The notes under the pieces: model-generated | Seen by the model: the letters and a program-made list of their open reading frames with translations, nothing else | Database searches by the model: none | Told to the model about the DNA's origin: nothing | Source: a virus | IMG/VR virus record: IMGVR_UViG_3300027861_000001 | Coordinates: 1 to 64,000 of that record | DNA: 64,000 nucleotides | Reading direction: 5' to 3' (one strand) | Program-made: the position numbers and the translations under genes | Shown here: positions 1,333 to 63,006 of the stretch, in pieces | Position numbering within the stretch: the stretch's first letter is position 1 | Layout of the letters: each line of letters starts with the position of its first letter

Positions 1333-1706
1333 GTAATATGAACCTCCGCCCGCACACTTTTAAAGAGGCGGAAAATGTCCACCATTATTCTTGTTCCTTC
1401 TTCGTATAACGGCTCTCTTTATGGGTTGGAAGGTTATACAGCCACCTACGAAACCAAGGACAAACAATAGTATATCCATCTAACCTCCTTGTAGGCTTAA
1501 GGTTGGGTAATACCTTTGTGCATAGCTAAGGTTTCATGGTAAGTAAGTATGGCATCAATAACACCCAAAGCTGCTTTACATTCTTCTGTTTGTCCTTTGT
1601 CTAAATGTTCTTTGGCTGCATAGACCACGTGTCTAAGTTGAAATAATGTGTTATCTTCCATCTATTAGCTCCTTATATAGTAGGTAATAATGGTAATGTA
1701 TGAGCC

Positions 1707-1922
1707 TCAGCCCGCACGATTTTTTCCATAATTGGCTAACCACTCTACTCGTTCTCGTTCTAACTGTTTTTCCTTCTCTCGTTCTGCCTGTTTTTCCTTC
1801 TTATGTCGGCTATAGAAATACCAAGGAACAGACCATATAGGAAACGTAAGTATTAAGACAATCAACAATAAAATGTTAACGCCTGCTTCAACACCTTCAT
1901 CCAAGTTTTCGGCTGTAAGCAT
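1707..1922 (-). CDS. small membrane protein
   Basis: One hydrophobic segment then a charged tail; AGGAGG RBS. Confidence 0.65.
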   Translation of the reverse strand: MLTAENLDEGVEAGVNILLLIVLILTFPIWSVPWYFYSRHKKEKQAEREKEKQLERERVEWLANYGKNRAG

Positions 1923-2010
1923 TCCAACCTCCTTTTTTTGGTAGAGGCATCTTCTTTTACTACGTCTACTTGCAATTTGTAGTATTTAACCATTTGTACC
2001 TCCTTTTAGG

Positions 2011-2277
2011 CTAATAACTACGATTAGTGTAGTTTATGTGTTGTATCGTTATTTTATCCTCATCAATTCCTTTGGCTTTGGCTACCTTCTTCAAAGCCTT
2101 TACTACTTCAGGTATCACTTCAGCATCATCAGTCTCTATTGTGGCTGCTATGCTGATTACATGGGGGTGTGTTACATTACACATGTTATATACATCCTCC
2201 GCCGAAAATCTATTTGTTAGTGCCTTTGGTAAGCCTTTCAGGTCTTGTGGAAAATGCTCAGGATAAATCAACCTCAA
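2011..2277 (-). CDS. hypothetical protein
   Basis: 88-aa ORF, TTG start, AGGAGG RBS. Confidence 0.6.
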   Translation of the reverse strand: MRLIYPEHFPQDLKGLPKALTNRFSAEDVYNMCNVTHPHVISIAATIETDDAEVIPEVVKALKKVAKAKGIDEDKITIQHINYTNRSY

Positions 2278-2420
2278 TTTATACCTCCTTCTAGGCTTAT
2301 TTGATTATTAAGATAAGCATAATAGCTGTCAACTGTATTGATATTATTACAAGAAGCCAGTTAATATCACATAATTGTCTCTTGATTGGCATTTACCTCC
2401 CTTATTAGGCTAATGTGCAG

Positions 2421-2894
2421 TTACTTCACTTGTAATACTTCTAGGCGTTCAGGTAGGGAAGGATACACTAAGCCCACCCAAAAATTCCCTTTCATCTTCT
2501 CCATTTCCCTCAAATCGCTGTTATAGTTGTTAATGGCATTTCGCCACTCAGCAATCCTGGCACTCACAGCCTGTCCCTGCTCCATCTTTTCAAGCGAGCC
2601 GTCCACCAAGAACCCATCAGTTATGGCAGGGTCACTCAGCAAATCTTCTGTCAACTCAATGGCAGTAATATAATTGGCAGAGTTGGCATCATGAAAGGCC
2701 TCTAACTCGGCTACATCTTTCTGTAAGTCAATACTCATGCAAACAGGGACTAGCAGTAGGGTTACTATGGCACCAATAGAAATACCTATGAGAACTTTCC
2801 AGCCATCCTTATCATATCCTTTATACCTTTTCAGTTTATAGATGCCGAAAATTAACAGTGCGGCAAATATTACCAATAGAATTACGAATAACAT
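2421..2894 (-). CDS. membrane protein, weakly LemA-like
   Basis: Two N-terminal TM segments, coiled region, RIAEWRNAINNYN...NFW resembling the LemA C-terminal YN motif. Confidence 0.45.
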   Translation of the reverse strand: MLFVILLVIFAALLIFGIYKLKRYKGYDKDGWKVLIGISIGAIVTLLLVPVCMSIDLQKDVAELEAFHDANSANYITAIELTEDLLSDPAITDGFLVDGSLEKMEQGQAVSARIAEWRNAINNYNSDLREMEKMKGNFWVGLVYPSLPERLEVLQVK

Positions 2895-2918
2895 TAGACT
2901 ACCTCCATTTTTAGTTAT

Positions 2919-3152
2919 TTAATCATTCAACAGCGCATAAGTTATAGCTGCCAGTATGCACAGTAGTATAAGTGCGGCTAGAACTATCCATAGTGGGGAG
3001 AGTACAAACACCCAAGCCCACGAAATAACTCCTGCCACTTTCATGACGATGAATGCCACTGTCAGGATGGATGATATACCGGCAGAGACAGCGAGCAGTA
3101 CATACAGAACTACAGCAATGGCTCCTGAGAATATACCTAATATTGTTTTCAT
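2919..3152 (-). CDS. small membrane protein
   Basis: Fully hydrophobic, SWAWVFVLSPLWI motif, GGAGG RBS. Confidence 0.6.
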   Translation of the reverse strand: MKTILGIFSGAIAVVLYVLLAVSAGISSILTVAFIVMKVAGVISWAWVFVLSPLWIVLAALILLCILAAITYALLND

Positions 3153-3581
3153 GCTACCTCCATTTTATTTGGTAACGGCTATTGTTATATTATCGTTTTA
3201 TCAATAGAAGCCTCCCCACATCAAGAGTGCGACACAGATAATTGTACCTACCACAGAGCCAAAAAACTGTCCGCCACCCTCTTTGTCGCATTTACCTGCC
3301 GACGTTAGCAGGTTGATGGCTAATATTACCGTATAGATTATTTGTGGTGCGCCCATGTTACCTCCTTTACTAGGCTTATTTGTCAGTTGCTATCCAAACA
3401 CCCAAGTCCACACAAACTAACTTTAGAACTTTGTTGGCTTCAAGCGTGTCGATATACGCATCGAGGCAATCTTTATCTAGTCCTTGTTTTATAGTATCCT
3501 TGGCAAAGTTATGCACCGTTGGATCGGCTAACACATCCTTAATGTGTTTTTTCAGGGTTGGCGATACATAATCAAGATTGC

Positions 3582-3878
3582 TCATATAAACCTCCAAGGT
3601 TTTACACTGTTTATAACTGGGGCTAATTGTTTTGAGTGCTTCAGAACGATATGCCTAGCCTTGACCATTTCTGTCTTTGTCAACCCACCGTTGTGTGACT
3701 TCTCAGCCAAGAACGTGCCATAAGGAGCATCAAATCTATTGAAGCCGATACCATTCTTATGGAGGGTTCTGGCTGGTCTTATCTCGTCTGGTGTTTGCCG
3801 ATGATACAATACATTCAGGCAAAATAGCACGAAGTAGTCACCCTGTTGGGCGTAACCTTTGAACTCCGCTGTATTCAT
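3582..3878 (-). CDS. phage-type hypothetical protein
   Basis: LYHRQTPDE...NGIGFNRFDA; AGGTAGG RBS. Confidence 0.55.
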   Translation of the reverse strand: MNTAEFKGYAQQGDYFVLFCLNVLYHRQTPDEIRPARTLHKNGIGFNRFDAPYGTFLAEKSHNGGLTKTEMVKARHIVLKHSKQLAPVINSVKPWRFI

Positions 3879-3998
3879 GGCACCTACCTTTTTCTTCTGT
3901 GATAGAAAGCCCAGCCACTTATTCCAAAAATGGCTAGAACCAACAACACTACACTAATCGGCATTCCCTTCTCTCCCAGCTTTTTGATTTATAAACCA

Positions 3999-4196
3999 TT
4001 AATTCCTATTAGCTTCAGCGTATGCCATCCAAACGTTGTCTGGTAGTGGTTCAAACTTAGCCATATGAAAGACAATATGTTCCTGCCACTCAGCTAAGTA
4101 ATCTAAGAACTCTGCCACACAACTGAATGTGATACTCTCTCCATTGCGGTTGCGTATAGTTACAGTACCATCGTTGGCTTCATGTATACTTCCCAT
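3999..4196 (-). CDS. hypothetical protein
   Basis: 65-aa ORF, AGGAGG RBS. Confidence 0.55.
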   Translation of the reverse strand: MGSIHEANDGTVTIRNRNGESITFSCVAEFLDYLAEWQEHIVFHMAKFEPLPDNVWMAYAEANRN

Positions 4197-4204
4197 TACC
4201 CCTC

Positions 4205-4663
4205 CTAATCATCCATGTCTAGCTCATCGCTTATTTCGTAGGCATCACCGATATTGAAGAAAATCCACTGCCAACACTTTCTATATGCTTTGTTCCTTAC
4301 TTGCTTGATGGGGTCTTTGGCTGCTTCCTCAAACTCCCTTCGTCTTGCGGCGTGATCTATGATAGGTGTTTCACAACTAACTTTTTCACCTTCATATGGA
4401 ACTTGAATCATTGGCTCTATACCGAGACGAGGTTCATTCCAGTGCTGCCAAGTTTTAGAGGTTTCGGGATGGACAATATCGAAGTGGTGATAGAATAGCT
4501 GCCAACTTAACACATAGTGGACATATTCGTGGTAACCACCACAAACATCGCAGGAATCTCTGCCTATACTTCGATACCATCCCTTCTCTTTGGCTATTAG
4601 TCTCTTCTTTTCCGCAATCCTGTTCTGAGAAGCAGCCAGCGCAGTCCTAACTGTTTTATTCAT
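4205..4663 (-). CDS. hypothetical protein
   Basis: 152 aa, AGGAG RBS, own promoter. Confidence 0.65.
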   Translation of the reverse strand: MNKTVRTALAASQNRIAEKKRLIAKEKGWYRSIGRDSCDVCGGYHEYVHYVLSWQLFYHHFDIVHPETSKTWQHWNEPRLGIEPMIQVPYEGEKVSCETPIIDHAARRREFEEAAKDPIKQVRNKAYRKCWQWIFFNIGDAYEISDELDMDD

Positions 4664-4696
4664 AGCCAGAACGCTCCTTTTTCTTTCTTCTACCTT

Positions 4697-4725
4697 ATTT
4701 TACCATTAGCCAGACATTAAGTCAA
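4697..4725 (-). promoter_or_regulatory. sigma70-type promoter with spacer GGC
   Basis: TTGACT-taatgtctGGCtaaTGg-TAAAAT. Confidence 0.7.
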
Positions 4726-4759
4726 GAGGTAGATTGATGCCACAAAACCACATCGGCTA

Positions 4760-5767
4760 TTATGCGGTGCTGTCTACTTTGGCATCATCTTCAATAACGA
4801 ATCCAGACTTCTTTAAGGCAACACTCATAAAGTCACCAAAAGTCAACATATGGCTCTTAAATGCATCAATTATTGCTTCAATATCATTCTCATGTTCTTT
4901 TAAGAATACGTTAGACGCATCACCATCGACATAAGTGTGTTTTCCTTCTACAACGGAAGTCAACACATCTACAGTAGGCATCACAGAGAACCATCCATTA
5001 ACATAATCAGCACGTTCCATTCTATAATAATAACGGGTAAACTCTCCAGTAGCTTTGTTTACGTAGCCAGATTGTATACCAAGTTTTGTTTTCAATGAGC
5101 TTAATATATATCTACTAAAGTCATCGTAGTCGTGTATATAAGTCTGAGACCTAGATACACCAACCGCCTTTCCATAGAGAGCAGAAAGTAACTTTTGTTT
5201 ATCTTTATAAGGCAGATTTGAGGCTTCTATTTGTTTTGCTCTGATTAACGCTTGTCTAATTTTTGTTTCATCTAAGACTTTTCTGTAACCTTTAGGAGAT
5301 TTCATATGAGCGAGTGCGGCATTTTTCAACCATCGAGCATTATCATTGTATGTCCTATTCATAGTCTTTATCATTTCATCAACCACAGTGGGTTGCTTTT
5401 CTTCTACTTTACGTTCCTTTTTCTTTTTGTATTCAGCAAGTTGCCGTTCTTTCGTAGCTTGTGCTTCTACCCAATATTTGGGGGTAAATGGTGGAAGTAT
5501 TGTTGCCGGTCTACCTGCATAATCAAAGCTACCGTAATGATTTCTTCTTGAAGACACCCCACAAAGCCCACTTGGTTCGTAATCAAGATTACCCAACCTT
5601 TTGATGCCATCTTTTTTACTCGGTATTGTGTTCTCGAAATAAACTAGCAATTCCTTTCTTAGGGTATTAAGGGTTCTCTCGCTGAGACAAGAAAGCCCTT
5701 CTACCAAATGGATTGCTTTTAGTAGTTTTTCTGCCTTTTCATGATCCTCCAGTTGATAGTACCCCAT
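4760..5767 (-). CDS. hypothetical protein
   Basis: 335-aa ORF, GAGGTG RBS. Confidence 0.75.
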   Translation of the reverse strand: MGYYQLEDHEKAEKLLKAIHLVEGLSCLSERTLNTLRKELLVYFENTIPSKKDGIKRLGNLDYEPSGLCGVSSRRNHYGSFDYAGRPATILPPFTPKYWVEAQATKERQLAEYKKKKERKVEEKQPTVVDEMIKTMNRTYNDNARWLKNAALAHMKSPKGYRKVLDETKIRQALIRAKQIEASNLPYKDKQKLLSALYGKAVGVSRSQTYIHDYDDFSRYILSSLKTKLGIQSGYVNKATGEFTRYYYRMERADYVNGWFSVMPTVDVLTSVVEGKHTYVDGDASNVFLKEHENDIEAIIDAFKSHMLTFGDFMSVALKKSGFVIEDDAKVDSTA

Positions 5768-5782
5768 TATGCACCTCTTTTT

Positions 5783-6478
5783 TTACTTCATTGTGCTACA
5801 GAAGCTCAGGATTTCCCTCAGCGCCGTTCGTGTATCTTCATCCGAAATTGCCAAATTCATCTTAGCAAGCATAGCAAGATCGGTGGCAGTTGCTTTATGT
5901 TCCTTCAACTTACCAAGCATACCTTCCAAATCGCCGAGTAGCTTCTTGATTTCGCTGTGACCTCTTACAGCCCTCTCCCAGGCTCTTTTAGCCCTCTCAG
6001 CCGCAGTTTCAAGCTTTCTTACAGCAAGATCATGAAGTTGCATCTCTATTCGATATGTACCATATGCCTTTTCTTTGTCTTCGATGGTAATGGTAATATC
6101 ACTTACCGGACGCTCAGGTGTTTCGGCTTTTTTGTCCATGACAACCATTTGTGCCTCAACATAAGCATCATAGAGTTTTTGTGTTCCTGAGATTTCAGTG
6201 AGTTTTTCTTTCATTACGTCGAAGCCAGCAGAATCGTGATAGTAGCTATCCTGCTTGTTACGAATGAAATTAACAAGCATAGTAATTTCGCCTTCACGTA
6301 CGCTCAGCTTATCAAGTACATTTGTTTCCCAATCGTTCAGCACTTGGACGCCGGTTTCACGCTGCCCATCTGTCAGTTTATCGCTCTTGCCCAGACCTTC
6401 GATTGTTTTTTGCAATTTGGAGAAGTCAATTTCACTGACTAGGGCTAACGCCGTGGATTTTTCCTTTTTCTCTGCCAA
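5783..6478 (-). CDS. coiled-coil-rich hypothetical protein
   Basis: 231 aa, helical heptad pattern, GGAGG RBS. Confidence 0.7.
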   Translation of the reverse strand: MAEKKEKSTALALVSEIDFSKLQKTIEGLGKSDKLTDGQRETGVQVLNDWETNVLDKLSVREGEITMLVNFIRNKQDSYYHDSAGFDVMKEKLTEISGTQKLYDAYVEAQMVVMDKKAETPERPVSDITITIEDKEKAYGTYRIEMQLHDLAVRKLETAAERAKRAWERAVRGHSEIKKLLGDLEGMLGKLKEHKATATDLAMLAKMNLAISDEDTRTALREILSFCSTMK

Positions 6479-6512
6479 AATATTCCTCCCGTTTTATTTA
6501 GACCTTAAATGC

Positions 6513-6550
6513 AAGTAAGGAGAGGCTATCTTTCAAGTCTCTCCTTACTT
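6513..6550. terminator. long intergenic hairpin (terminator or processing site)
   Basis: aagtaaggagaggct...agtctctccttactt inverted repeat of about 15 bp. Confidence 0.55.
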
Positions 6551-6621
6551 ATTAGGTTTTTTGAACCTTCACCTCTTGATTAGAGGCGTCTGTTGTTAAG
6601 TGTGCTTATTCAGCACTCGGC

Positions 6622-7425
6622 TTATTCAGTTGTAGGTTTATCTTCTTCGGCGTTAAACGTTAGAGTTTTTCCGTCCCAAACTGGGGGAGTCCACAACACG
6701 ATATAACCGCCCGATTTGTTTCGGGAGTCTGGAACCGATTTGCCACTCCCATAAGCATCGGGGAGTTCTGACGGAGTGCCATCATCGGAACCAACCATTG
6801 CACCTTGCTTTGAGCCAACAACGTTAGTTCGTGGACTGGTGTACTGTCCTCGTCCGGCTTCACCATCAGGAACTTTTGACCCGTCACCCCAGCCGACCTG
6901 AGCAACCGAAAGAAGTCTTTCGGGGTTTGCCTTTGTGGCCAGATCAATCACACAGGCTTCTGAAATCTTGGTTGTCTGCATGAGAGTCATAATAATGGGA
7001 TTGGGGTACTCGGCGGAAATCTCAACAAGGTTATTCAACCGGAATTGCATTTCCTTGATAAGATTTTTTGCATCAGCAGCCTTCATATTATCAATGGTTT
7101 CGGTTTTGACGGATAGAAAATAGTTTTCCATTTCCAGCACACCGTTTTGAATTCTGCGTGTAGCATCCCGCCACGCATACTTCCTCTCACTTGTGCCAGG
7201 CTGGGTTGAGGATTCTGCACTCACCAGAAGAATTGCCTCCTCCAGCTCAGGTAAATCAATTCCCTGTAAGCCAGCGAAAGCGGTACTCATCGGAACCCTC
7301 AGAGCTTCATCTGGGATGGCGTCAATCATTGCGATGTGACCCTTGATAGTGTTTTTATGGACATCTTTACCACCAGCGAGCCTGAGCCATCCTTTTTTCG
7401 GTTTGTCTGTAATTACTTGTGCCAC
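6622..7425 (-). CDS. hypothetical protein
   Basis: 267 aa, GTG start with AGGAGG RBS, first long gene after the promoter at 7551-7579. Confidence 0.75.
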   Translation of the reverse strand: MAQVITDKPKKGWLRLAGGKDVHKNTIKGHIAMIDAIPDEALRVPMSTAFAGLQGIDLPELEEAILLVSAESSTQPGTSERKYAWRDATRRIQNGVLEMENYFLSVKTETIDNMKAADAKNLIKEMQFRLNNLVEISAEYPNPIIMTLMQTTKISEACVIDLATKANPERLLSVAQVGWGDGSKVPDGEAGRGQYTSPRTNVVGSKQGAMVGSDDGTPSELPDAYGSGKSVPDSRNKSGGYIVLWTPPVWDGKTLTFNAEEDKPTTE

Positions 7426-7550
7426 TTCGACCTCCTAAAATAAAGATTTGTTAGTGTATAACCATTATCTAACTTGTCGTATAGGCGATCTCCCTTATTT
7501 GTTGTGCTTCTTGGCGTCTCCATTTTCCTCTATCCGTTCCTTACATACTA

Positions 7551-7579
7551 ATCTTATCATATGCCCAGTTAAATGTCAA
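7551..7579 (-). promoter_or_regulatory. sigma70-type promoter with spacer GGC
   Basis: TTGACA-tttaactgGGCataTGa-TAAGAT. Confidence 0.7.
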
Positions 7580-7776
7580 TACCCTGTTATTAGGCACAGT
7601 TTTACAAAATATTTGTGGCAATGTCAGGGTGCTGTAGGGTATAATATAATGTACCTGTACATTATATAGTTGACATAACGTTATAAAGCTGTGGTCTGGG
7701 CATTATTCCTACCCCCCTAGGCTAATCTGCTATACCAAATACCCTTTGGCTAATATGACAGAGTGAAGCTGTGGGG

Positions 7777-7805
7777 TTGACGATTTTCTAGGCGTTTGCT
7801 ATACT
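7777..7805 (+). promoter_or_regulatory. sigma70-type promoter with spacer GGC (divergent partner)
   Basis: TTGACG-attttctaGGCgttTGc-TATACT. Confidence 0.7.
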
Positions 7806-7872
7806 TAAATTGTAGGGACAGATTTTCAACAGAAAATAACCTGCCTGTATAATCTCAGGCAGAGGAAGTGAA

Positions 7873-36463: not shown

Positions 36464-37651
36464 GTGGACAATATTCCGGTAATGACTCAGATCATAAAAA
36501 AGTGCATCGAAGTAAAAAGGACGCCCCTGTTGTGGGGTAAACATGGTATTGGTAAATCTGATATCATAAGAGACATTGGAGAACAGTTGGGATTCGATAA
36601 GGTAATTGACTTGCGGCTGGGGCAGTTGGAAGTTGGTGACCTTATTGGGATGCCGGACAGAGAGTATTACTGTCCATCATGTAAAACTTCATTTGGAACA
36701 AAAGGTGATTTAATCTTTTGTCCTGTGTGTGAGGATGAAGGCAGAGGAAAGGTAGCAATCGCAGGCAGAACAATCTTTCTACCTCCAGATTGGTTACCAC
36801 AAAACGGAGAAAAGTATTTACTATTCTTCGACGAATTTAATAGAGGAAGGTTGGATGTTCAGCAGGCAGCTTTCCAAATTGTGTTGGATAGAAAAATCCA
36901 TCGTCACGTAATTCCTGACAATTGTGCAATTATTTGTGCTTGTAATCCTTCTGGTGGAAATTACAATGTTGAGGAATTGGATGAGGCTTTGATCGATAGG
37001 TTCATCAACATTAAGTTTTCTCTGAGGGCTGATGAATGGTTGAAGTGGGCTACTGATCATAATATTAATGAAAATATTGTGGACTTTATTATGACAGACA
37101 ATACCGCCCTCGGTGCTGATCCTATTGAAATTCCTGTTGAAATTAAACCTTCTCCACGCTCTTATGAGTTCCTTAGCAACGTAATTACAGGACTCGACAG
37201 GAACTATTGGTCAGCAACTGCGGCAATGATTGTTGGAGAAACCACCGCTTTACAGTTTATGGCAAGCCTTAAAACAGACCTTGATAAACCTGTTAGAGCA
37301 AAAGACATATTCGACAAATTCAACGATAAGAAAGACCCTTCAAAAGCTACTCCAACAAGAAGGAAAGTTATTGCTCAATGCAGAAAAACAGAAGGACAAA
37401 CAAGGTTTGATTTGCTTGACCAAACTATAAAAGAAATTGTGCGTGACTTGAAAGATGACCAAAGCAAAAAATACAATGAAAGTCAGCTTAACAATCTCGG
37501 CGATTTCCTTTTGTTGATTCCTAAAGACTTGGCATTTACTGCAATAAAAGACCTTTCCTTGATGAACGACGTAAACATGAGACTTCTATTGATTAGAACT
37601 GACCTATTCGACCTCATCAAAGGGGCTAGGGGAACTGACAAAGACGGTTAA
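36464..37651 (+). CDS. MoxR-like AAA+ ATPase with inserted zinc ribbon
   Basis: Walker A GKHGIGKS, DLIGMP, Walker B FFDEFNR, ACNP, LIDRF, SPRS; CPSC...CPVC insert. Confidence 0.85.
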   Translation: MDNIPVMTQIIKKCIEVKRTPLLWGKHGIGKSDIIRDIGEQLGFDKVIDLRLGQLEVGDLIGMPDREYYCPSCKTSFGTKGDLIFCPVCEDEGRGKVAIAGRTIFLPPDWLPQNGEKYLLFFDEFNRGRLDVQQAAFQIVLDRKIHRHVIPDNCAIICACNPSGGNYNVEELDEALIDRFINIKFSLRADEWLKWATDHNINENIVDFIMTDNTALGADPIEIPVEIKPSPRSYEFLSNVITGLDRNYWSATAAMIVGETTALQFMASLKTDLDKPVRAKDIFDKFNDKKDPSKATPTRRKVIAQCRKTEGQTRFDLLDQTIKEIVRDLKDDQSKKYNESQLNNLGDFLLLIPKDLAFTAIKDLSLMNDVNMRLLLIRTDLFDLIKGARGTDKDG

Positions 37652-37662
37652 TTCCCCAAAAC

Positions 37663-37703
37663 AAGCTGGTGGTGTGTGTTAGCGAGGCATGCGCCACCAG
37701 CTT
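37663..37703 (+). other. intergenic RNA hairpin
   Basis: aagctggtggtgtgtg...catgcgccaccagctt, about 16-17 bp including G-U pairs, no U-tract. Confidence 0.55.
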
Positions 37704-37724
37704 ATCAATAAAGGAGAGAGAATA

Positions 37725-39269
37725 ATGGCAGAGAAAAAACAAGACACAAGCTATCTTGATAAGGTAGATGTTACTTCTCCAATTATAACTGATGCTTGCA
37801 TTGACCAAGAAATTATTCAGTTAGTATTGCTACATAAGTATTTTTATTCACACTTTTTACAGCAGTTTAGACGGCACATCATTAAAAAAGGTGACCCGTT
37901 GTGGGATAAAGTACCAACACTTGGTGTAAACATCACAGATGATTTACGTCCAAATTTATTTGTAAATGAGGCTTGGTATGGTAGTTTAACACCAGATGAG
38001 AAGCTAGCCGTGCTAGAGCATGAGGTTCTTCACATACTAAATAAACACTTAATAAGAAAAGAAGGCAGAGAACCTTATCTGTGGAATCTTGCTAGCGATG
38101 TTGCTATTAATCAATACATAAAAGGATTACCAAACGAGGGGCTTTGCCCTGATTGTAATATACTAGTCAGGCGCACAAGTGACGGTAAGTTACCAACACG
38201 TTGTAATGTATGTAACAGAGAGCTTGACCCTAAAAAAGATAAATGGGAAGCACTAGACTATCAAACTTTCAAGTTACTAAAAGATAAGAAATTACCTAAA
38301 GAAGAACCAACAGAATGTTATTATGACCTTATGAATGAAAACTTACCAAAAGAAACTATCCAACTTGGCATAAAAATGACTAAGGAAAAAACAAAAGGAT
38401 GTAAGGAGTGTGGTGGGTTTGGTAACTCAAACGATCCGCAACCAAGCGAAGAGCCACAAGACGGTGAGGGAAGTGGAGGACAGGGTGAAGAAGAATCCGA
38501 TAAGCACGGTTGTGGGCAGTTAGAAATAGATGGCGTAAAAGTTCCTATGACTATGGACCCACATGAAATTTGGGAAACTGGTTCTGATAATCAGGAAATG
38601 GCTCATGAAAAGATTAAAGAAATGGTTAGGTCTGCTCTTGATGAATCAAACCAAAGACAACAAGGGCATCTTCCAGACTTCTTAAGAGGTTTGATTGATT
38701 CGTGTATTGCTCATAAGATTCTTAACTGGAAATCAGAACTTCGTAGGTTCGTTGGTTATGAGGAATTTGCGAAGATGGAATCTACCAGAAAGAAAACCAA
38801 CAGACGATATGGTGTGTATCAGCCTGGAACTAGGGTAGTAAGGAAAGCACACATTGCTGTAATTGTAGATAGTTCTGGTTCTGTTTCTAATGACGAATTT
38901 GCTAAATTCTTTAAAGAAATAGAGTTTATGAAGAAGGCTGGTGTTGGTATCACTATTATTGAATGTGATGCTGATGTCCAATCTGTTTATGAGTATAAGA
39001 AACGACCAACTATCGAAAGAATTGGATATGGTGGCACAGACTTTAGACCACCTTTCAAGTTACTTGTTGATAAGAAGTATACACAAGGAAGGCATGGAAA
39101 CAACAAAACGTTTGAACTAAGAAAAAGTGTTGACTGCATCATTTACTTGACAGACGGTTATGGTAGTTTTCCTACGTTTGTTCCAAAACCTACTATTTGG
39201 GTTATGACTCCTAACTACCAAGACCCAAAGAATCCAGCTCTTGGTAAGGTTATAGTAATGAAAGACTAA
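37725..39269 (+). CDS. DUF2201-type metallopeptidase (HExxH) + VWA-like domain protein
   Basis: EHEVLH, WNLASDVAIN, VDSSGS, ECDA, GGTDFRP, YLTDG; typical partner of MoxR-like ATPases. Confidence 0.85.
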   Translation: MAEKKQDTSYLDKVDVTSPIITDACIDQEIIQLVLLHKYFYSHFLQQFRRHIIKKGDPLWDKVPTLGVNITDDLRPNLFVNEAWYGSLTPDEKLAVLEHEVLHILNKHLIRKEGREPYLWNLASDVAINQYIKGLPNEGLCPDCNILVRRTSDGKLPTRCNVCNRELDPKKDKWEALDYQTFKLLKDKKLPKEEPTECYYDLMNENLPKETIQLGIKMTKEKTKGCKECGGFGNSNDPQPSEEPQDGEGSGGQGEEESDKHGCGQLEIDGVKVPMTMDPHEIWETGSDNQEMAHEKIKEMVRSALDESNQRQQGHLPDFLRGLIDSCIAHKILNWKSELRRFVGYEEFAKMESTRKKTNRRYGVYQPGTRVVRKAHIAVIVDSSGSVSNDEFAKFFKEIEFMKKAGVGITIIECDADVQSVYEYKKRPTIERIGYGGTDFRPPFKLLVDKKYTQGRHGNNKTFELRKSVDCIIYLTDGYGSFPTFVPKPTIWVMTPNYQDPKNPALGKVIVMKD

Positions 39270-39565
39270 TGAAAATCTTTAAAGTAAAAACATTTGGTAG
39301 TGGTATATCTATTAGGTGTAGTGCCGAAGATTGTGGTAATTGCAACATTAGGTTTAGGTGTTGGACAACTAACTACTTGGACTATACCGAAGCATATTAC
39401 TACTTTGAAATTGATAAATCTAGGCTACCGGCTGAGGATTGGGCAGTAAAAAAATTGAACCTTGGAAATAAATATGACACAAGAGGTTATTTCGCAGTAG
39501 TAAAAATACTTGAACTGTATTTGTTTGGTAGGGTAGTAAACAAATTCAAATCTGTGAGTAGTTAA
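39269..39565 (+). CDS. CWT-family protein (N-terminal motif)
   Basis: CGNCNIRFRCWTT at residues ~23-35. Confidence 0.7.
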   Translation: MKIFKVKTFGSGISIRCSAEDCGNCNIRFRCWTTNYLDYTEAYYYFEIDKSRLPAEDWAVKKLNLGNKYDTRGYFAVVKILELYLFGRVVNKFKSVSS

Positions 39566-39567
39566 GT

Positions 39568-39996
39568 ATGGGAAAATCTATACCAATTCGAAAAGAATGC
39601 TTAGATAATAAGTTTATGTGTAATAGTTGTTCTGTGAGATACCTTTGTTACACAAACAGCTTACCTAGTAGAAAGTGCAGTGACTTAGAATATGCTTTTG
39701 ACTATAACAACACACCTTTTGAGTATGAAGATATTCTAGCTATTTGGGCAGCTGTTTATGGAGCAAATGACGGTTCCGACTGGTTTTGGGTAGTACAATT
39801 ATCTGGAAATAAATATTCATTAGTACGTGGTGGTTGTGACTATACAGGTTGGGACTGACAGAGTTGGGTTAGTTGCGAGTTCGCAACATCAACAGAAGAG
39901 GCAGCTAAGTTGTCACCTATTAAAGACGACGGCAGACCTATACAAGACACTTTGTTGAAACAAATAAAAGGTGAAATTCCTTATGGGACTGTTTAA
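39568..39996 (+). CDS. candidate selenoprotein (in-frame UGA at 39856-39858) with an N-terminal CWT-family motif
   Basis: GGCDYTGWD-UGA-QSWV... stays open to TAA 39994-39996, which overlaps the next ATG; SECIS-like hairpin follows the UGA. Confidence 0.65.
39863..39893 (+). promoter_or_regulatory. putative bacterial SECIS element
   Basis: gttgg..GTTGCG-AGTT-CGCAAC..tcaac hairpin, apical G about 21 nt after the UGA. Confidence 0.6.
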
Positions 39997-40223
39997 TGGA
40001 ATTACCAAAAATAGGTACTAGACTTATAGTGGTAAGCAACGAAGGAAGATGGTTGCCTAAAGGTGAGGTTGTAATATTTGATGGTACGTCTTACTCAGGT
40101 AACTGGATGATTATTACACCAGATGGTAGACGTTCGGGTGGGTGGTTGCCAGGAAGATTTAAAGTATGCCCAGCTAATACCTGTGATACATGTAAACAAC
40201 GATATAGGTGTTGGACTACTTAG
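39996..40223 (+). CDS. CWT-family protein
   Basis: Ends CDTCKQRYRCWTT. Confidence 0.8.
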   Translation: MELPKIGTRLIVVSNEGRWLPKGEVVIFDGTSYSGNWMIITPDGRRSGGWLPGRFKVCPANTCDTCKQRYRCWTT

Positions 40224-40969: not shown

Positions 40970-41315
40970 AAACGGATCGGGGTTAGGCGTGGAAAGTAAG
41001 TTTTTATGTTGTTACACTGAAGGAAACCCTTTGGAACTTGAATTTAAGTTTATTATAAAATTAGTTTACCGTGGTGTTTTCCAAAAGTATATACTTTACA
41101 AACGTGAAAACTTTCTTAATTACTTTGGTGATAAACGAAATCCATTCGAAAAAGATACGTACACGCATTTAGATTTAATGTACGAAAAGTTTTATATGGC
41201 AGGTTATACAGTAGATAAAAATTGTGATGATTGTAACTACAGGTTCTTCTGTTTTACTGATGAACCTATTTCGATAACTATCGACGCATCAGGGAAAAAT
41301 TGGATACTTTTATGA
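40959..41315 (+). CDS. CWT-family protein (internal motif)
   Basis: CDDCNYRFFCFTD; start uncertain. Confidence 0.65.
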   Translation: MMNKNGSGLGVESKFLCCYTEGNPLELEFKFIIKLVYRGVFQKYILYKRENFLNYFGDKRNPFEKDTYTHLDLMYEKFYMAGYTVDKNCDDCNYRFFCFTDEPISITIDASGKNWILL

Positions 41316-41662
41316 AAAAGAAGTATTATCCTATAGTAACATTTCCAAGTAAATCCAGTAGTAAGGTTTATACTGTCTCAATGGATAATGATGGAGGATT
41401 AAGTTGTGATTGTCCTGCTTGGGTATTTAAAAAAGCTGGAGAAAGAATTTGTAGGCATATAAAAGAAGTCACAGCACAAGGTTTTGGTACAGTAGAAGGA
41501 AAGTTTGTTGTGTTAGTAGATTCATTGTCAAACAAAGAACCTATCTTCTGTAAAAAATATCCAAGGCAGTGTGATACTTGTAGTTTAAGATTTCCATGTT
41601 ATACAGCTAATACACCTGAGTTTTCTATTAAAGAATTGAGAAAAGAAGGTATTGTTAAGTGA
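41312..41662 (+). CDS. SWIM zinc-finger + CWT-family motif protein
   Basis: YTV...SCDCPAW...CRH (SWIM); CDTCSLRFPCYTA. Confidence 0.75.
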   Translation: MKKKYYPIVTFPSKSSSKVYTVSMDNDGGLSCDCPAWVFKKAGERICRHIKEVTAQGFGTVEGKFVVLVDSLSNKEPIFCKKYPRQCDTCSLRFPCYTANTPEFSIKELRKEGIVK

Positions 41663-57755: not shown

Positions 57756-57833
57756 TCTATGGCGATGAGTCTCAAAGTCTCACCCATTCCCAAAAATGCA
57801 TGTGACAACAGTGGGTCTAAGCCTAGTGAGTTG

Positions 57834-57907
57834 CAAGGGTAATAGGATTCGAACCTATAATCTTCTCGGTCAAAGCGAGATGCATTAGCCAGTTATGCTA
57901 TACCCTT
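57834..57907 (-). tRNA. tRNA-Gln(UUG)
   Basis: AAGGGTA/TACCCTT acceptor stem, anticodon loop CTTTGAC, GGTTCGAATCC T-arm; followed by CAA, not CCA. Confidence 0.9.
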
Positions 57908-57946
57908 ATTTGGTTTTCTTCTCATATCTACACCACAGCGGAATAA

Positions 57947-58651
57947 TTAAATATCTAAAAAGTACAACTCCCAAGTATTGTCTTGTATTTCTACCCAACT
58001 GAAACTATCTTCAAAGTCACCACTATCTGCCAGTAACCCATCAAATTCAGTAGGACAGTGCGAGTGATTAACACATATTTTACTATTATGTTTTTTTGCA
58101 TATTCTCTTGCTCTAAGGTGCATTATACCTACGTTCGTACTCCAATCACCTACATAATCATGTTTCTTATCAGAAAGTGTTTTTCCTTTGAACGGTCTGT
58201 TAGTATGAAGATTGTATAGGAATACTAAAGAGTTAGGAAAACGATCAGCCCACCAGAACAGGAAGTTTCCTATGACTTTATAGAATCCTCCCCATATAAG
58301 GTCAAACTCCCATCCATGTCTGAACATCAGATTTCCATCATCATATTTCTTACACAGTTGTGTTCCTGGTAAATATTCTTGTTTTGCGTTAGAATCATGA
58401 TTTACGGCAACCCACACAGTTGTTAAACCAAGTAAGTTTCTTTGTTTACATGTTTCTTTCAACCGCAACCAAGTCTTAGATTTAAGTATGTTCTTCCACT
58501 TAGCCTTCCAAGGGTCTCCTATATCTCCGTTTAGTACGAGAACATCCGGTTTCTTCTGGTCTACTTTATCTAAGAACTTTGAGATTGGTATGAATCTTTC
58601 ATCTTTATCGTCTATATGAAAGTCACCACAAACAAGATAGTATTTATTCAC
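57947..58651 (-). CDS. calcineurin-like metallophosphoesterase
   Basis: GDFH, NGDIGD, NHD, HG, HSH. Confidence 0.8.
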   Translation of the reverse strand: MNKYYLVCGDFHIDDKDERFIPISKFLDKVDQKKPDVLVLNGDIGDPWKAKWKNILKSKTWLRLKETCKQRNLLGLTTVWVAVNHDSNAKQEYLPGTQLCKKYDDGNLMFRHGWEFDLIWGGFYKVIGNFLFWWADRFPNSLVFLYNLHTNRPFKGKTLSDKKHDYVGDWSTNVGIMHLRAREYAKKHNSKICVNHSHCPTEFDGLLADSGDFEDSFSWVEIQDNTWELYFLDI

Positions 58652-58655
58652 TCTC

Positions 58656-58988
58656 TCACCTCTTTCCTACTATTATAAACTCCTGTAAATCTCTTGGAGA
58701 CACATACCACATCCCAATTTTGTAATCAGCATAATCAACTTCTTTCTTCTGTAAATAAAATTTTACATTATCATCAGTCCTATACTCTATATAATATGCA
58801 CGATTACTATCAATTCTCCAACGCTGATCAACTGGTATATGTAAAGCATTTTTAATTATTTGATTATTAGATATCTCTACATAATCACCACGCCCACCAT
58901 GAACTATTCTTTTAAACCCAATTGTTACCTGTACATCGGTGTTTGTGGTTAACCAAAAGTTGCCACCGTTATGTGCATAGTTGTTCAT
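58656..58988 (-). CDS. hypothetical protein
   Basis: RIVHGGRGDYVE; 110-aa ORF. Confidence 0.6.
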   Translation of the reverse strand: MNNYAHNGGNFWLTTNTDVQVTIGFKRIVHGGRGDYVEISNNQIIKNALHIPVDQRWRIDSNRAYYIEYRTDDNVKFYLQKKEVDYADYKIGMWYVSPRDLQEFIIVGKR

Positions 58989-59207
58989 TGCTTTCCTACT
59001 AAAGTCTTATTACTTCACTAACACCATGTCCACAACAGGCACTCGCTATTCCTTTCAGAGTACCAAGACAGGCATCTTGTCCTTTGTAAGGAAATCTATT
59101 ACACTTCTTACACGGTCTTGAATCATCATAAAGTTGATGGGTATCCTCATACAACCACTTATCACCTTCATACACAATAACCCATCCTCTAGAGTATGAT
59201 CGTATCA

Positions 59208-59396
59208 TTATTCCTCTCCTAAACGCTTATTCCAAAGTCTAATTGCCTCATATTTATTATCATCACTTACGCACGGTGTAACATCACACACATCGCTTCT
59301 ACATTCAACATAGAAAGTTGCAAATCCTTCATATCCACTACCAGCCCATACAGTAGGTAATTCTCCACAGAACGGACATGGTTTCAAGTCATCCAT
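59208..59396 (-). CDS. Lar-family (restriction alleviation) zinc-ribbon protein
   Basis: LKPCPFCG...EC...C...AIRLWNKR. Confidence 0.7.
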   Translation of the reverse strand: MDDLKPCPFCGELPTVWAGSGYEGFATFYVECRSDVCDVTPCVSDDNKYEAIRLWNKRLGEE

Positions 59397-59562
59397 TACC
59401 TTTCCTCCCCTAATTGCTTAATCAGTGCTTGCCAACCCTCGCTTCGTTTATGCCCCTCAATAAGACCATCAGCTATTATTTTGTTGTTTACCTTGACAAT
59501 ATATTTATAGTTCGAAATTTCAGCTAGCTCACTAATATTCCACATGTGAATTATTAACATAT

Positions 59563-59892
59563 CTACTTCCCACCATTATCCACCGTTAACTTCCAACCTT
59601 CTTCTTTCATATCTTTTACTACGGTTTTCTCCATATTTACAAACCAGTTGCTTAGGTGGTTGCTTTCATGCTTTTGCTTCTTCGCTATCACTCCCAACAT
59701 GCGTGAGCCATCAGGTCGTTTGAGGGCTAGGATGGCACTGATATCACCATCTCTTGAACATTCCACAAGTATACATGTGCGGTTGTAATTCGGACTTCTA
59801 GGGTTTTCTCTGTCAGTCTTAAATGTCCTACTCCCACACTTTAAACAGAGAACATCCCTTATCGCCTCCTTTACTTCTTCATATTCGCTCAT
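59563..59892 (-). CDS. hypothetical protein
   Basis: ORF in a coupled minus-strand block. Confidence 0.55.
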   Translation of the reverse strand: MSEYEEVKEAIRDVLCLKCGSRTFKTDRENPRSPNYNRTCILVECSRDGDISAILALKRPDGSRMLGVIAKKQKHESNHLSNWFVNMEKTVVKDMKEEGWKLTVDNGGK

Positions 59893-60548
59893 CTTTCACC
59901 ACCTTATAAATTGTATCTGCGAGGGTATCAAAATAGTTTTTATCACCATAAATAAAAACACCTTCACACAGATTAAAAACTTTTAACCTTTGACTGACAG
60001 TAAGCTTAGGCCACATCCACTCAAACAGTATATTCATATCTTGAGGTGGGAGTTGCATCAAAACCTCACCGTCAGGAGTGTTGTACGATATTACCTTGCA
60101 CGGTCCCATATGAGAACTCCATTCCCACCCCGCCCACTCGCATAGCTCTTGCCATTGCCCATCTTCCATCAGATACCTCCTGTTATGAAATTGCACCCCT
60201 AAACCAATAGAGGTGCAATCGTCTACCTATCATTCTTGATATAATGCCTTACGACACATATTGTTGTTATAAATATTACAACTGACACCACAAGTATACT
60301 AGCTAATACTACCATTCGTCTCCTCTGTTGTTACCGCTAAAGCTTCAACACCGTATAGTGCAACTAGCTTTATCTTTTCATCCGAAAGTTTACCAGTACC
60401 TTTTTTAAATCCCCATTTAGCTCTTAACCTCCCATTTTTCTTAATTTCTTCTTTAATATACCTTAATTCTGTTAAGACAAGCTTCCCTGCCCAACCAGGA
60501 ATTAATAATCTTTTAGCATAAAACTCAGTAAGATGTTTGTCTTTACCT

Positions 60549-60887
60549 TTACTCACAGCAGACCAACTCCCCTATATAGTTTGGAGGATTGTTTCGATTA
60601 TTACGTCTATCAACAGCTCGTTGTTGCGGAGTTTTGGCTGGTGGAGGTGGATGCTTTTTAATATGACACTCTGGACACAAAACTTGTATATTATCTCTGT
60701 CATCATGACCACCATCCTCAAGGTGAACTATATGATGACATTGCAATTCCTCAACCTCACTACACTCTTCACACTTACCAACCTCTGAACGTATCTCTTG
60801 TAGTTTTTTACTCCTCTCAATACCAGCTAATTCTAATATAACACGTTCACGATTAGTAAGTAGCTCTTTTGGGCCAAATCTATTCAT
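60549..60887 (-). CDS. HNH endonuclease-family protein
   Basis: CEEC...HHIVHLEDGG...N..VLCPECH. Confidence 0.8.
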   Translation of the reverse strand: MNRFGPKELLTNRERVILELAGIERSKKLQEIRSEVGKCEECSEVEELQCHHIVHLEDGGHDDRDNIQVLCPECHIKKHPPPPAKTPQQRAVDRRNNRNNPPNYIGELVCCE

Positions 60888-61243
60888 CCTCTACTTCCTT
60901 TACAAGTTGGTTCCAATCTTCTTCTCTCAGCGATAACTCTTGAGTACGACAATCTCTAAACAAGCTATACTCGTTTCCTGACATACACGGGTACAAAGCG
61001 TTAACTACTTTTTTAAGTTGCGCTTTGGCTACAACATCAAACAGTCCTATAGCGTCTACTTCCCAATGTGGGTTCTTGTCTAATGCCTCAGTCCACACTT
61101 TTTCTGTCTCTTCCTTAGTTAATAAATAAGATACTTCTTTATCCATTTTACCATCCTATTCGATTTTCGTTCTTCAAACATATAACAGTCACCGAACGAG
61201 TTTTGATTCATACAGGAATAAATACACCTACCACAATCTTTCA

Positions 61244-61708
61244 TCAAATACTCTCCCATTTATCATCAAGCCACCGCTTACCAAACTTTTCTTCCATTAC
61301 AAACGCTAACCAAAGTTTCTCACCTGAATCGAATACATTTGTTGGAACACAAACATAAGCCTCATCACAGTACTGCTCATTCATCCACGCAACGAAACAC
61401 AAGAAAGCTGCTTCGATGTAGAAGGAAGAATACACTATCTCATCCTGTAATGCATAATATTGTCCAATAATTTCCTGTAGTTGGTCTTGCCGTGGAAGCC
61501 AAATATGGTACGCATCGTCCGGTATTACTTGTGCAAAACAACTTCCATTAACTATAGTTTTACAACTGCACACTGGACAACCTGTATAATCAAGGTTTGT
61601 TACTTCAAGGCATTTCGTGCATCCGTGGAAATTTCTACTCTCGATTACATACTTCTCTTGTACCTCAGCACAGTTGCACATCTTAATATAAGTTTTTGAA
61701 TTATCCAT
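61244..61708 (-). CDS. hypothetical protein
   Basis: YIKMC...WLPRQDQLQ...LWLAFVM. Confidence 0.6.
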   Translation of the reverse strand: MDNSKTYIKMCNCAEVQEKYVIESRNFHGCTKCLEVTNLDYTGCPVCSCKTIVNGSCFAQVIPDDAYHIWLPRQDQLQEIIGQYYALQDEIVYSSFYIEAAFLCFVAWMNEQYCDEAYVCVPTNVFDSGEKLWLAFVMEEKFGKRWLDDKWESI

Positions 61709-61711
61709 TAC

Positions 61712-61978
61712 TTATCTCCATTCTACTTTTACACCAAAAACCTTAGACATTAACCAGTATCTAACCCTGTTTCTTTTACTCCTTTCTATGTGATAACAAA
61801 ACTTTAAAGTACCAAAATTATCACCAAAAGAAACTTCAATATTGTGATTTTCTAAATTAACCGACAGTGATCCCCAGTGATCATCTTGCTCACAAATATT
61901 TTCTACTTGTGTGAAGCACCTAAACCTATCTATACACGTATCACACTTGTTCTTTTTTTTTCTCCAAGGCTTTCTCAT
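61712..61978 (-). CDS. CWT-family protein (N-terminal motif)
   Basis: CDTCIDRFRCFTQ. Confidence 0.65.
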   Translation of the reverse strand: MRKPWRKKKNKCDTCIDRFRCFTQVENICEQDDHWGSLSVNLENHNIEVSFGDNFGTLKFCYHIERSKRNRVRYWLMSKVFGVKVEWR

Positions 61979-62262
61979 AATCCCGCTTCTTTAACTTTGC
62001 GAACTGCTTCCTCTTCTGTTAGTTTTCCTTTCTCAACATCTCGAATCAAAGGATAGAGAACCCAGTGAATATCGACACACACAGCTAATAAGTCGTTTAT
62101 CTCGTCATACAACTCCTTAATGTTAGTAGACTCAGGTCGATCTGGATGCCAATTAAAGTAACCAAACCGTCTAGCTTTGCCAAGAGCTTTGAACACTTCC
62201 CCTACTTCTTCCAATAACTTGTCCTGAAGTCCACCTATATTCTTATAATCTTTATGACTCAT
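61975..62262 (-). CDS. MazG-like nucleotide pyrophosphohydrolase
   Basis: LLEEVGEV...ELYDEINDLL (EExxE...ExxD). Confidence 0.7.
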   Translation of the reverse strand: MSHKDYKNIGGLQDKLLEEVGEVFKALGKARRFGYFNWHPDRPESTNIKELYDEINDLLAVCVDIHWVLYPLIRDVEKGKLTEEEAVRKVKEAGL

Positions 62263-62282
62263 AATCTACTCCATTTCTTTTG

Positions 62283-62364
62283 CGGAAGGTGAGAGATTCG
62301 AACTCCCAAGGCTTTTATACCTGCTGTTTTCAAGACAGTTTACTTCACCAATAGCAGACCTTCC
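62283..62364 (-). tRNA. tRNA-Ser(UGA)
   Basis: GGAAGGT/ACCTTCC-G acceptor stem, loop CTTGAAA, long variable arm, GTTCGAATC; followed by CAA. Confidence 0.85.
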
Positions 62365-62367
62365 ATC

Positions 62368-62652
62368 TTAACTCGTCCAACAGACAAATCTTGCAATACA
62401 ATCTTCACAATCAGGACACGGTAGTTTATCTATCTTTTCATGAAAATGCCTTAGCACTTCATACTTTATACCATTCTTCACTTCTTCATGAGTTTCGTAA
62501 CAATTGTTACAATCCCAGCATTCGTGTATCCAAGAGTCATAATCAACTATATCCCAAGAATTTAATTCGTTGTGTCTGTCTTTAGAAGTATAAACCCAAC
62601 CCCAACACACCCAAACTGAACCACAATAGTCGCATGTTCTTAAATTATTCAT
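62368..62652 (-). CDS. CWT-family protein
   Basis: Ends CEDCIARFVCWTS; start refined to 62652. Confidence 0.75.
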   Translation of the reverse strand: MNNLRTCDYCGSVWVCWGWVYTSKDRHNELNSWDIVDYDSWIHECWDCNNCYETHEEVKNGIKYEVLRHFHEKIDKLPCPDCEDCIARFVCWTS

Positions 62653-62929
62653 AATATAACATATCCAAGCTGTCAGTCCAGCACGGAAACTTATATTTAC
62701 ATTCGTCACAATTATAAGGTACTATTTCCCACGGATACATCCACACACTAAAGAAGAATGATGGATTGCTGGTTGTAATACTTACCAAATACAATTCACC
62801 TCTTGGTGCTTTAGTTTCAGCTGTTACGATTCTTACATCAAACTCTCTACTTGTAAATGTACCCTGCCAAGTCTCGTCCAAATGAACTCCATTTGGTAAA
62901 CAGACCTTGTCGTCAACTTCAAACTTCAT
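62645..62929 (-). CDS. CWT-family protein
   Basis: FEVDDKV; CDECKYKFPCWTDS. Confidence 0.75.
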   Translation of the reverse strand: MKFEVDDKVCLPNGVHLDETWQGTFTSREFDVRIVTAETKAPRGELYLVSITTSNPSFFFSVWMYPWEIVPYNCDECKYKFPCWTDSLDMLYYE

Positions 62930-62933
62930 TTTG

Positions 62934-63006
62934 AGCCCCCAGTAGGAATCGAACCCACAACCTATCGCTTACAAGGCGATTGCTCTTCCAGTTGAGCTAT
63001 GGAGGC
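62934..63006 (-). tRNA. tRNA-Thr(UGU)
   Basis: GCCTCCA/TGGGGGC acceptor stem, loop CTTGTAA, GGTTCGATTCC; followed by CAA. Confidence 0.9.

Follow-up and report, generated by a model that had tools for sequence, protein, structure and literature searches.

The window analysed here corresponds to the initial 64,000 nt of a phage genome that is complete at 149,053 bp with direct terminal repeats, a G+C content of ~36% and 23 tRNA genes. The gene under study lies in a tightly packed block of plus-strand genes (median gap −1 nt; 82% of gaps ≤20 nt), with its ATG 2 nt past the stop codon of the gene upstream, and its features are collected in Table 1. The gene caller predicted an ORF of 96 codons up to a TGA in the context GGCDYTGWD-stop-QSW (39568-39858), compared with 142 residues if this codon is recoded. 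Beyond the TGA there are 45 further open codons and then a TAA, which shares a base with the ATG of the next gene in the arrangement TAATG. These codons occupy what would otherwise be a non-coding gap of 137 nt (39859-39995). A sequence-only reading of this DNA had already claimed the TGA with 45 open codons beyond it, the TAATG overlap and the filling of a 137-nt gap in a tight operon, as well as a Cx6U motif with Sec97, an N-terminal CWT-type motif and a hairpin GTTGCG-AGTT-CGCAAC on a gttgg/tcaac stem 13 nt after the UGA. All of these points were confirmed directly from the sequence, the Cx6 spacing running from Cys90 to codon 97, the N-terminal motif lying at residues 18-29 and the hairpin having a predicted free energy of −10.6 kcal/mol.

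Table 1. Features of the candidate selenoprotein gene and of its surroundings (positions in the window)
Feature	Position	Strand	Remarks
MoxR/dynein-type AAA ATPase	36464..37651	+	phrog_1297, PF07728
DUF2201 protein, putative metallopeptidase + VWA-like domains	37689..39269	+	PF13203 + PF09967; next after the AAA ATPase
Recoded CDS	39568..39996	+	142 codons (proposed Sec97) + TAA
N-terminal tag CNSCSVRYLCYT, residues 18-29	39619..39654	+	in the low-confidence N-terminal 31 residues
Cys90 (TGT), nearly invariant partner in the C-x6-U/C motif	39835..39837	+	alignments
In-frame UGA, proposed selenocysteine codon 97	39856..39858	+	aligned with Cys of GGCDYTGWD-C-QS
Codons translated only with UGA recoding (45)	39859..39993	+	open frame, homologs, model
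SECIS-type hairpin within the coding sequence	39863..39893	+	−10.6 kcal/mol, folding from the UGA onwards; its 26-nt window is the best folder of 124 in-gene windows
Upper stem, 6 bp	39872..39877 with 39882..39887	+	GTTGCG with CGCAAC; 13 nt past the UGA
Lower stem, 5 bp	39863..39867 with 39889..39893	+	GTTGG with TCAAC
Apical loop AGUU	39878..39881	+	contains G24 and U25 (the U of UGA being nt 1)
TAA	39994..39996	+	end of the recoded frame
ATG of the next gene	39996	+	shares a base with the TAA
Small ORF with C-terminal tag	41300..41662	+	SWIM zinc-finger match below threshold (17.5 bits, cut-off 19.6; E = 0.0029)
tRNA genes, part within the window	57833..63006	−	series continues to ~81 kb

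One alternative explanation of such an open frame would be that TGA is a sense codon throughout the phage or its host, as in code 4 or 25. Nothing beyond the open frame itself speaks for this, and we regard it as extremely improbable, since table 11 gives a high coding density in the window, the phage carries no suppressor tRNA, and Trp or Gly at this codon would replace an invariant Cys. Moreover, of 171 ORFs that are 100 aa or longer, 33 end in TGA, and a meaningful extension beyond it exists only for the ORF described here. A combination of an extension of at least 20 codons with a hairpin of −6 kcal/mol or lower at that place was likewise found in only one of the 121 TGA-ending ORFs of the 149-kb genome, namely the present gene.

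We then considered the relatives of the protein. HMMER was run against 1.84 billion representatives with the gene translated through the UGA, with C in place of U, as the query, and the full search returned 844 representatives at E ≤0.001, the taxonomically labelled members being overwhelmingly viral. Homologs align across residues 37-142 of the window protein, and the aligned full-length homologs read GGCDYTGWD-C-QS, i.e. they carry Cys at the position of the UGA and continue beyond it; this Cys is invariant in one family alignment and nearly invariant in another. Several representatives stop one residue before the Cys, and the contigs fetched for them have a TGA there with an open frame beyond. 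A direct search of viral, metagenome and MAG contigs for the back-translated motif followed by TGA detected 5 viral contigs, 56 metagenome contigs and 1 MAG contig, corresponding to 56 distinct sequences. In every UGA form whose contig reaches far enough, the frame after the TGA is open for 30-98 codons, and these open frames are homologous to the C-terminal part of the Cys forms. When viral contigs were scanned without bias, leaving the codon as NNN, and the results were pooled with the other viral loci, 50 distinct viral-contig sequences had TGC (28), TGT (17) or TGA (5) and no other codon, indicating that this position accepts only Cys or UGA.

Among the findings that the sequence-only reading had itself named as speaking against it are homologs that end at this position or have a residue other than Cys there. 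What we found is the opposite, as the homologs have Cys at the position and extend past it, and none of them refutes the proposal. As the TGA recurs in 56 distinct sequences with the frame open after it, these comparisons exclude a sequencing error or a private nonsense mutation as its source. A related proposal is that the TGA is a true stop, either because a recent truncation has left a pseudogene or because the gene product has 96 residues, with the downstream 137 nt decaying or regulatory. This would agree with the prediction of the gene caller and would require no more than a single TGY-to-TGA change. We nevertheless consider it very unlikely, given that the same TGA and open homologous frame persist down to ~30-50% protein identity, that there is no start codon after the UGA, and that the TAATG coupling requires ribosomes which arrive in the recoded frame. 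Substitution patterns argue in the same direction: in close UGA-bearing pairs the pS/pN values after the UGA were 0.41/0.026, 0.30/0.078 and 0.19/0, and so large an excess of pS over pN indicates that this region is selected as coding sequence in the UGA-bearing lineages.

The structure of the protein was predicted with AlphaFold2 from a 91-sequence alignment, giving a model with pLDDT >90 for residues 38-140 and <50 for residues 1-31. The predicted elements are a helix (residues 38-46), four strands (56-63, 72-78, 82-90 and 99-106) and two further helices (109-114 and 125-133). Because the last strand and both final helices lie after the UGA, a product of 96 residues would be an incomplete domain. 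In the model, Cys90 and Sec97 are placed at the ends of the β-hairpin loop GGC-DYTGWD-U between strands 3 and 4, and it is therefore plausible that they would form a redox-active selenylsulfide or a metal site in this α/β domain. No Pfam or PHROGs family was found for the window protein and its relatives, and Foldseek searches of the PDB and BFVD returned nothing at E ≤0.001. The best fold matches, obtained with VIA-align, were to the WGR domain of PARP1/PARP3 (2cr9, 7s68 and 2eoc; Z 5.2-5.5 over 80-92 residues); we take these as a resemblance only, as Z values this low do not distinguish true relatives from arrangements that are common among folds, only 7-10% of residues are identical, and there was no match to Pfam WGR at E up to 1. 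Pfam DUF7574 (PF24459) emerged as an Atlas lead (score 0.90, 11-68% of cluster members) with a natural Cys homolog, and not the recoded window protein, as the query, and was rejected, none of the 91 family members matching it at E ≤0.01. There was also a marginal profile match (E = 0.015), which we treated as weak, to the Tetrahymena mitoribosomal protein mS76 (PDB 6z1p chain BG, residues 76-156). Its sequence '...EPDCRFTGNDF...' aligns with 'GGCDYTGWDCQ', keeping the first Cys and having Phe at the second, and mS76 is possibly a remote relative or a chance match.

The N-terminal tag of the protein belongs to a motif that is common in this phage. When the 149-kb genome is translated in six frames, the pattern C-x2-C-x2-[RK]-[FY]-x-C-x-T occurs 64 times, and it is absent from five shuffles. 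Copies on the plus strand of the window include those at 39332, 39619, 40182, 41223, 41570 and 41941, and six copies fall in consecutive small genes around the Sec gene, the tag being C-terminal in the neighbouring genes and N-terminal in the Sec protein. The pair of genes for the AAA ATPase and the DUF2201 protein is located directly upstream of these small tagged genes. Another UGA-form homolog, on contig JBINOA010000057.1 of GCA_043956695.1 (L030:3001-3273, +), where the contig ends 3 nt past the TGA, has a tag CLTCPNRFLCWT N-terminal to the domain, and this shared arrangement suggests that its source is a phage related to the window phage. Over the 103 family loci we found no conserved neighbouring genes, a situation that we read as typical of free-standing accessory phage genes.

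Sec and Cys forms are interleaved in the family tree, with 24 changes on the best tree, of which well-supported branches require at least three; this count of switches is rough, as the alignment has few columns and the two states are unequally sampled. The nearest relatives of the window protein are UGA forms, with identities of ≤50%.

At the place of the window hairpin, a hairpin of at least 4 contiguous bp is present in 49 of 54 UGA homologs, whereas it is essentially absent from 24 Cys homologs. The 49 hairpins comprise 45 distinct stems, with all Watson-Crick pair types occurring at each stem position. With the U of UGA taken as nt 1, 41 of the 49 hairpins have a loop that begins at nt 23-24, and 39 have the G of a loop GU at nt 24-25; the commonest loops are AGUU (15), GGUC (9) and GGU (6). 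The mean folding energy of nt 13-38 was −9.6 kcal/mol for the 54 UGA forms compared with −2.9 kcal/mol for the 24 Cys forms (Mann-Whitney p = 4.6e-12), and a hairpin with GU in its loop was present in 76% of UGA forms and 0% of Cys forms. Within the UGA genes, the SECIS window folds better than a median 98.6% of the other windows, a ranking that controls for G+C content.

Other analyses of the same element were less informative. A 61-nt fold of the window gene that included upstream sequence was not significant alone (z = −1.1), a competing pairing being chosen. Counting pairs in a fixed register gave 46% of cells paired, about equal to slid controls, and RNAalifold found no consensus; no clear covariation appears with fixed columns or RNAalifold because the loops vary from 3 to 6 nt and the register differs from one sequence to another. 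Compensatory change and the tie of the hairpin to the UGA are supported instead by the 45 stems, the energy contrast between UGA and Cys forms and the in-gene rank. A covariance model (R1) built from the 54 UGA forms recovered 52 of them (missing L049 and L061), detected one independent sequence (L100) at 31 bits and scored its sole Cys form at E = 0.86, and adds little since it stayed ungapped. A search for Rfam SECIS families in 39700-40050 gave no match even at E up to 10, which has no bearing on function, as Rfam covers the SECIS elements of bacteria poorly. A conserved Phe-Ala of the protein also dictates part of the 3′ arm and loop (UUC GCN), and in the subfamily of the window protein the UGA forms show convergence to Ser-Glu-Phe-Ala, whose codons (AGC GAG UUC GCU) by themselves write out the hairpin.

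A hairpin after a UGA might also act without SelB. Under such leaky termination, the hairpin and a weak UGA-C context would permit a near-cognate tRNA to insert Trp, Cys or Arg, giving a minor full-length and a major 96-residue product. A C does follow the UGA in at least 90% of UGA forms, and the phage encodes its own tRNA-Trp(CCA) and tRNA-Cys(GCA) while lacking selB, selD and tRNA-Sec. However, this C belongs to a conserved Gln codon that is present in the Cys forms too, and the other homologs tolerate only Cys at the position, so that a product with Trp or Arg would probably be non-functional. Furthermore, a hairpin at a fixed distance with GU in the loop is the signature of SelB elements and not of readthrough stimulators, and the major product would be without a core strand and two helices. 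We therefore judge this explanation to be unlikely and favour SelB-dependent recoding.

As to the machinery, a search of the complete 149-kb phage genome for selB, selD and tRNA-Sec found none of them, which means that the phage must use that of its host; we infer that the host carries selABCD. The 23 tRNA genes of the phage, which all lie at 57.8-81.0 kb and are encoded by the minus strand, include no tRNA-Sec and no suppressor. Neither was a tRNA-Sec found in another phage, of 177 kb, that has a UGA form, nor a tRNA-Sec or suppressor tRNA in any fetched family locus. A UGA form occurs in just one MAG, an incomplete Ca. Ratteibacteria bin of 1.4 Mb, and this MAG had no selB or tRNA-Sec above cut-off, a result that is uninformative because the 7-kb contig is too short for reliable binning and is perhaps mis-binned. 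ARAGORN also reported, ~200 nt downstream of a Cys-form homolog, a tRNA-like gene whose anticodon '(ac)' is unusual in having two bases (L001:3501-3575 and L145:6585-6659, which are one contig, IMGVR_UViG_3300023222_000137).

A further variant is that recoding depends on the SECIS and SelB, but that the amino acid inserted is Cys, delivered by a host tRNA with a UCA anticodon that is charged with Cys; tRNAs of this kind, the 'tRNA-ReC' type of Mukai et al., reportedly exist. Although the evidence from the hairpin and the UGA applies equally to this variant, such tRNAs are rare, none was present in the phage or the fetched loci, and no positive evidence points to one, so that we consider it highly improbable in comparison with insertion of selenocysteine.

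Megablast of 5.6 kb of the window phage against phages gave no match, and tblastn with a 490-aa protein and the terminase detected only uncultured phages at 22-28% identity, without close cultured relatives. The large terminase gene (phrog_2, 3415-4986, −) lies in locus L168 (~133.5-139.9 kb of the phage genome) together with those for a portal protein (phrog_2739, 1540-3405, −) and the large subunit of ribonucleotide reductase (phrog_84, 5826-7856, −); the best database relative of this terminase is only 22% identical, placing the phage very distant from cultured phages.

These data establish, at the level of sequence, the pairing of UGA with Cys at one codon, a selected reading frame after the UGA and a hairpin that is specific to the UGA forms. 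We consider it very probable that the gene at 39568-39996 encodes, as the sequence-only reading had predicted, a selenoprotein of 142 residues with Sec97 that is made with the SelB machinery of the host. The description of its element as an fdhF-like SECIS also stands, given its restriction to UGA forms, its fdhF-like distance and the GU in its loop. In the proposed mechanism, a ribosome arriving at the UGA would be met by the hairpin, whose AGUU loop with G24 and U25 would recruit host SelB-GTP-Sec-tRNA(Sec); selenocysteine would then be inserted at position 97 and translation would continue as far as the TAA at the start of the next gene. We take SelB and Sec-tRNA to be the probable agents of recoding. 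With somewhat less assurance, we think it likely that a family of small proteins, widespread in tailed phages, has undergone repeated exchange between Sec and a Cys that is catalytic or binds metal, by means of a phage-borne SECIS that hijacks host SelB and tRNA-Sec.

Catalogued selenoproteins come from bacteria, archaea and eukaryotes and from two poxviruses, and if our interpretation is correct this would be a genuine family of bacteriophage selenoproteins. A UGA and SECIS carried by a phage would imply that phages can exploit a specialised recoding system of their hosts, and phage fitness would then depend on the selenium status of the host. The Sec or Cys state of the protein would mark selenium use by the host and might serve as a host-range marker. 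Gene callers systematically shorten such genes, here to 96 instead of 142 residues. In addition, a single small domain that occurs with either Cys or Sec offers a compact, testable pair for asking why selenium is preferred, and the ~50 natural SECIS variants could be used for engineering.

The nearest comparison within the family is with its Cys members (for example hypothetical proteins of Caudoviricetes sp. MW202608 and IMG/VR loci L001-L029), which have the same domain (residues ~37-142, GGCDYTGWDCQ) at 36-50% identity but have TGY for TGA and no hairpin, and most of which are without the N-terminal CxxCxxRYxCYT tag. Among known recoded genes, the window gene resembles those of the fdhF type in having a UGA that aligns with Cys, a hairpin of 5-7 bp inside the ORF a short way past the UGA and GU in the apical loop. 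In E. coli fdhF this GU is G23 U24, compared with nt 24-25 in the window element, and nine family homologs have the fdhF loop GGUC itself. Unlike fdhF, the window element has no bulged U corresponding to U17 and has a 4×1 internal loop instead. It agrees with the general description of a bacterial SECIS as a hairpin of 5-6 bp a few nucleotides after the UGA with an invariant G in the loop, similar to the minimal element of fdhF (PMC4607533, which also describes the bSECIS consensus of Zhang and Gladyshev 2005). In contrast with bacterial selenoprotein genes, this one is phage-encoded, in a genome without its own selB, selD or tRNA-Sec.

We found no report of a bacteriophage-encoded selenoprotein in the full-text papers searched. 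Deep-Sep makes no mention of phage, and the text of BSepDB (111 families, 2026; PMC13326102) contains neither phage nor virus. A review of viral recoding lists as virus-encoded selenoproteins only the GPx genes of two poxviruses, molluscum contagiosum and fowlpox (PMC8310308). Like the predicted phage protein, these are virus-encoded selenoproteins that rely on the Sec machinery of the host, and the fowlpox SECIS is also in the coding region. However, the poxviruses are viruses of eukaryotes whose captured host GPx gene uses a eukaryotic SECIS and SBP2, whereas the phage gene has a bacterial-type SECIS just after the UGA and belongs to a phage-specific family for which no cellular counterpart was found. 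Judged by these comparisons of sequence, what we describe is most likely the known bacterial UGA/SECIS mechanism, carried here by a phage in a new protein family.
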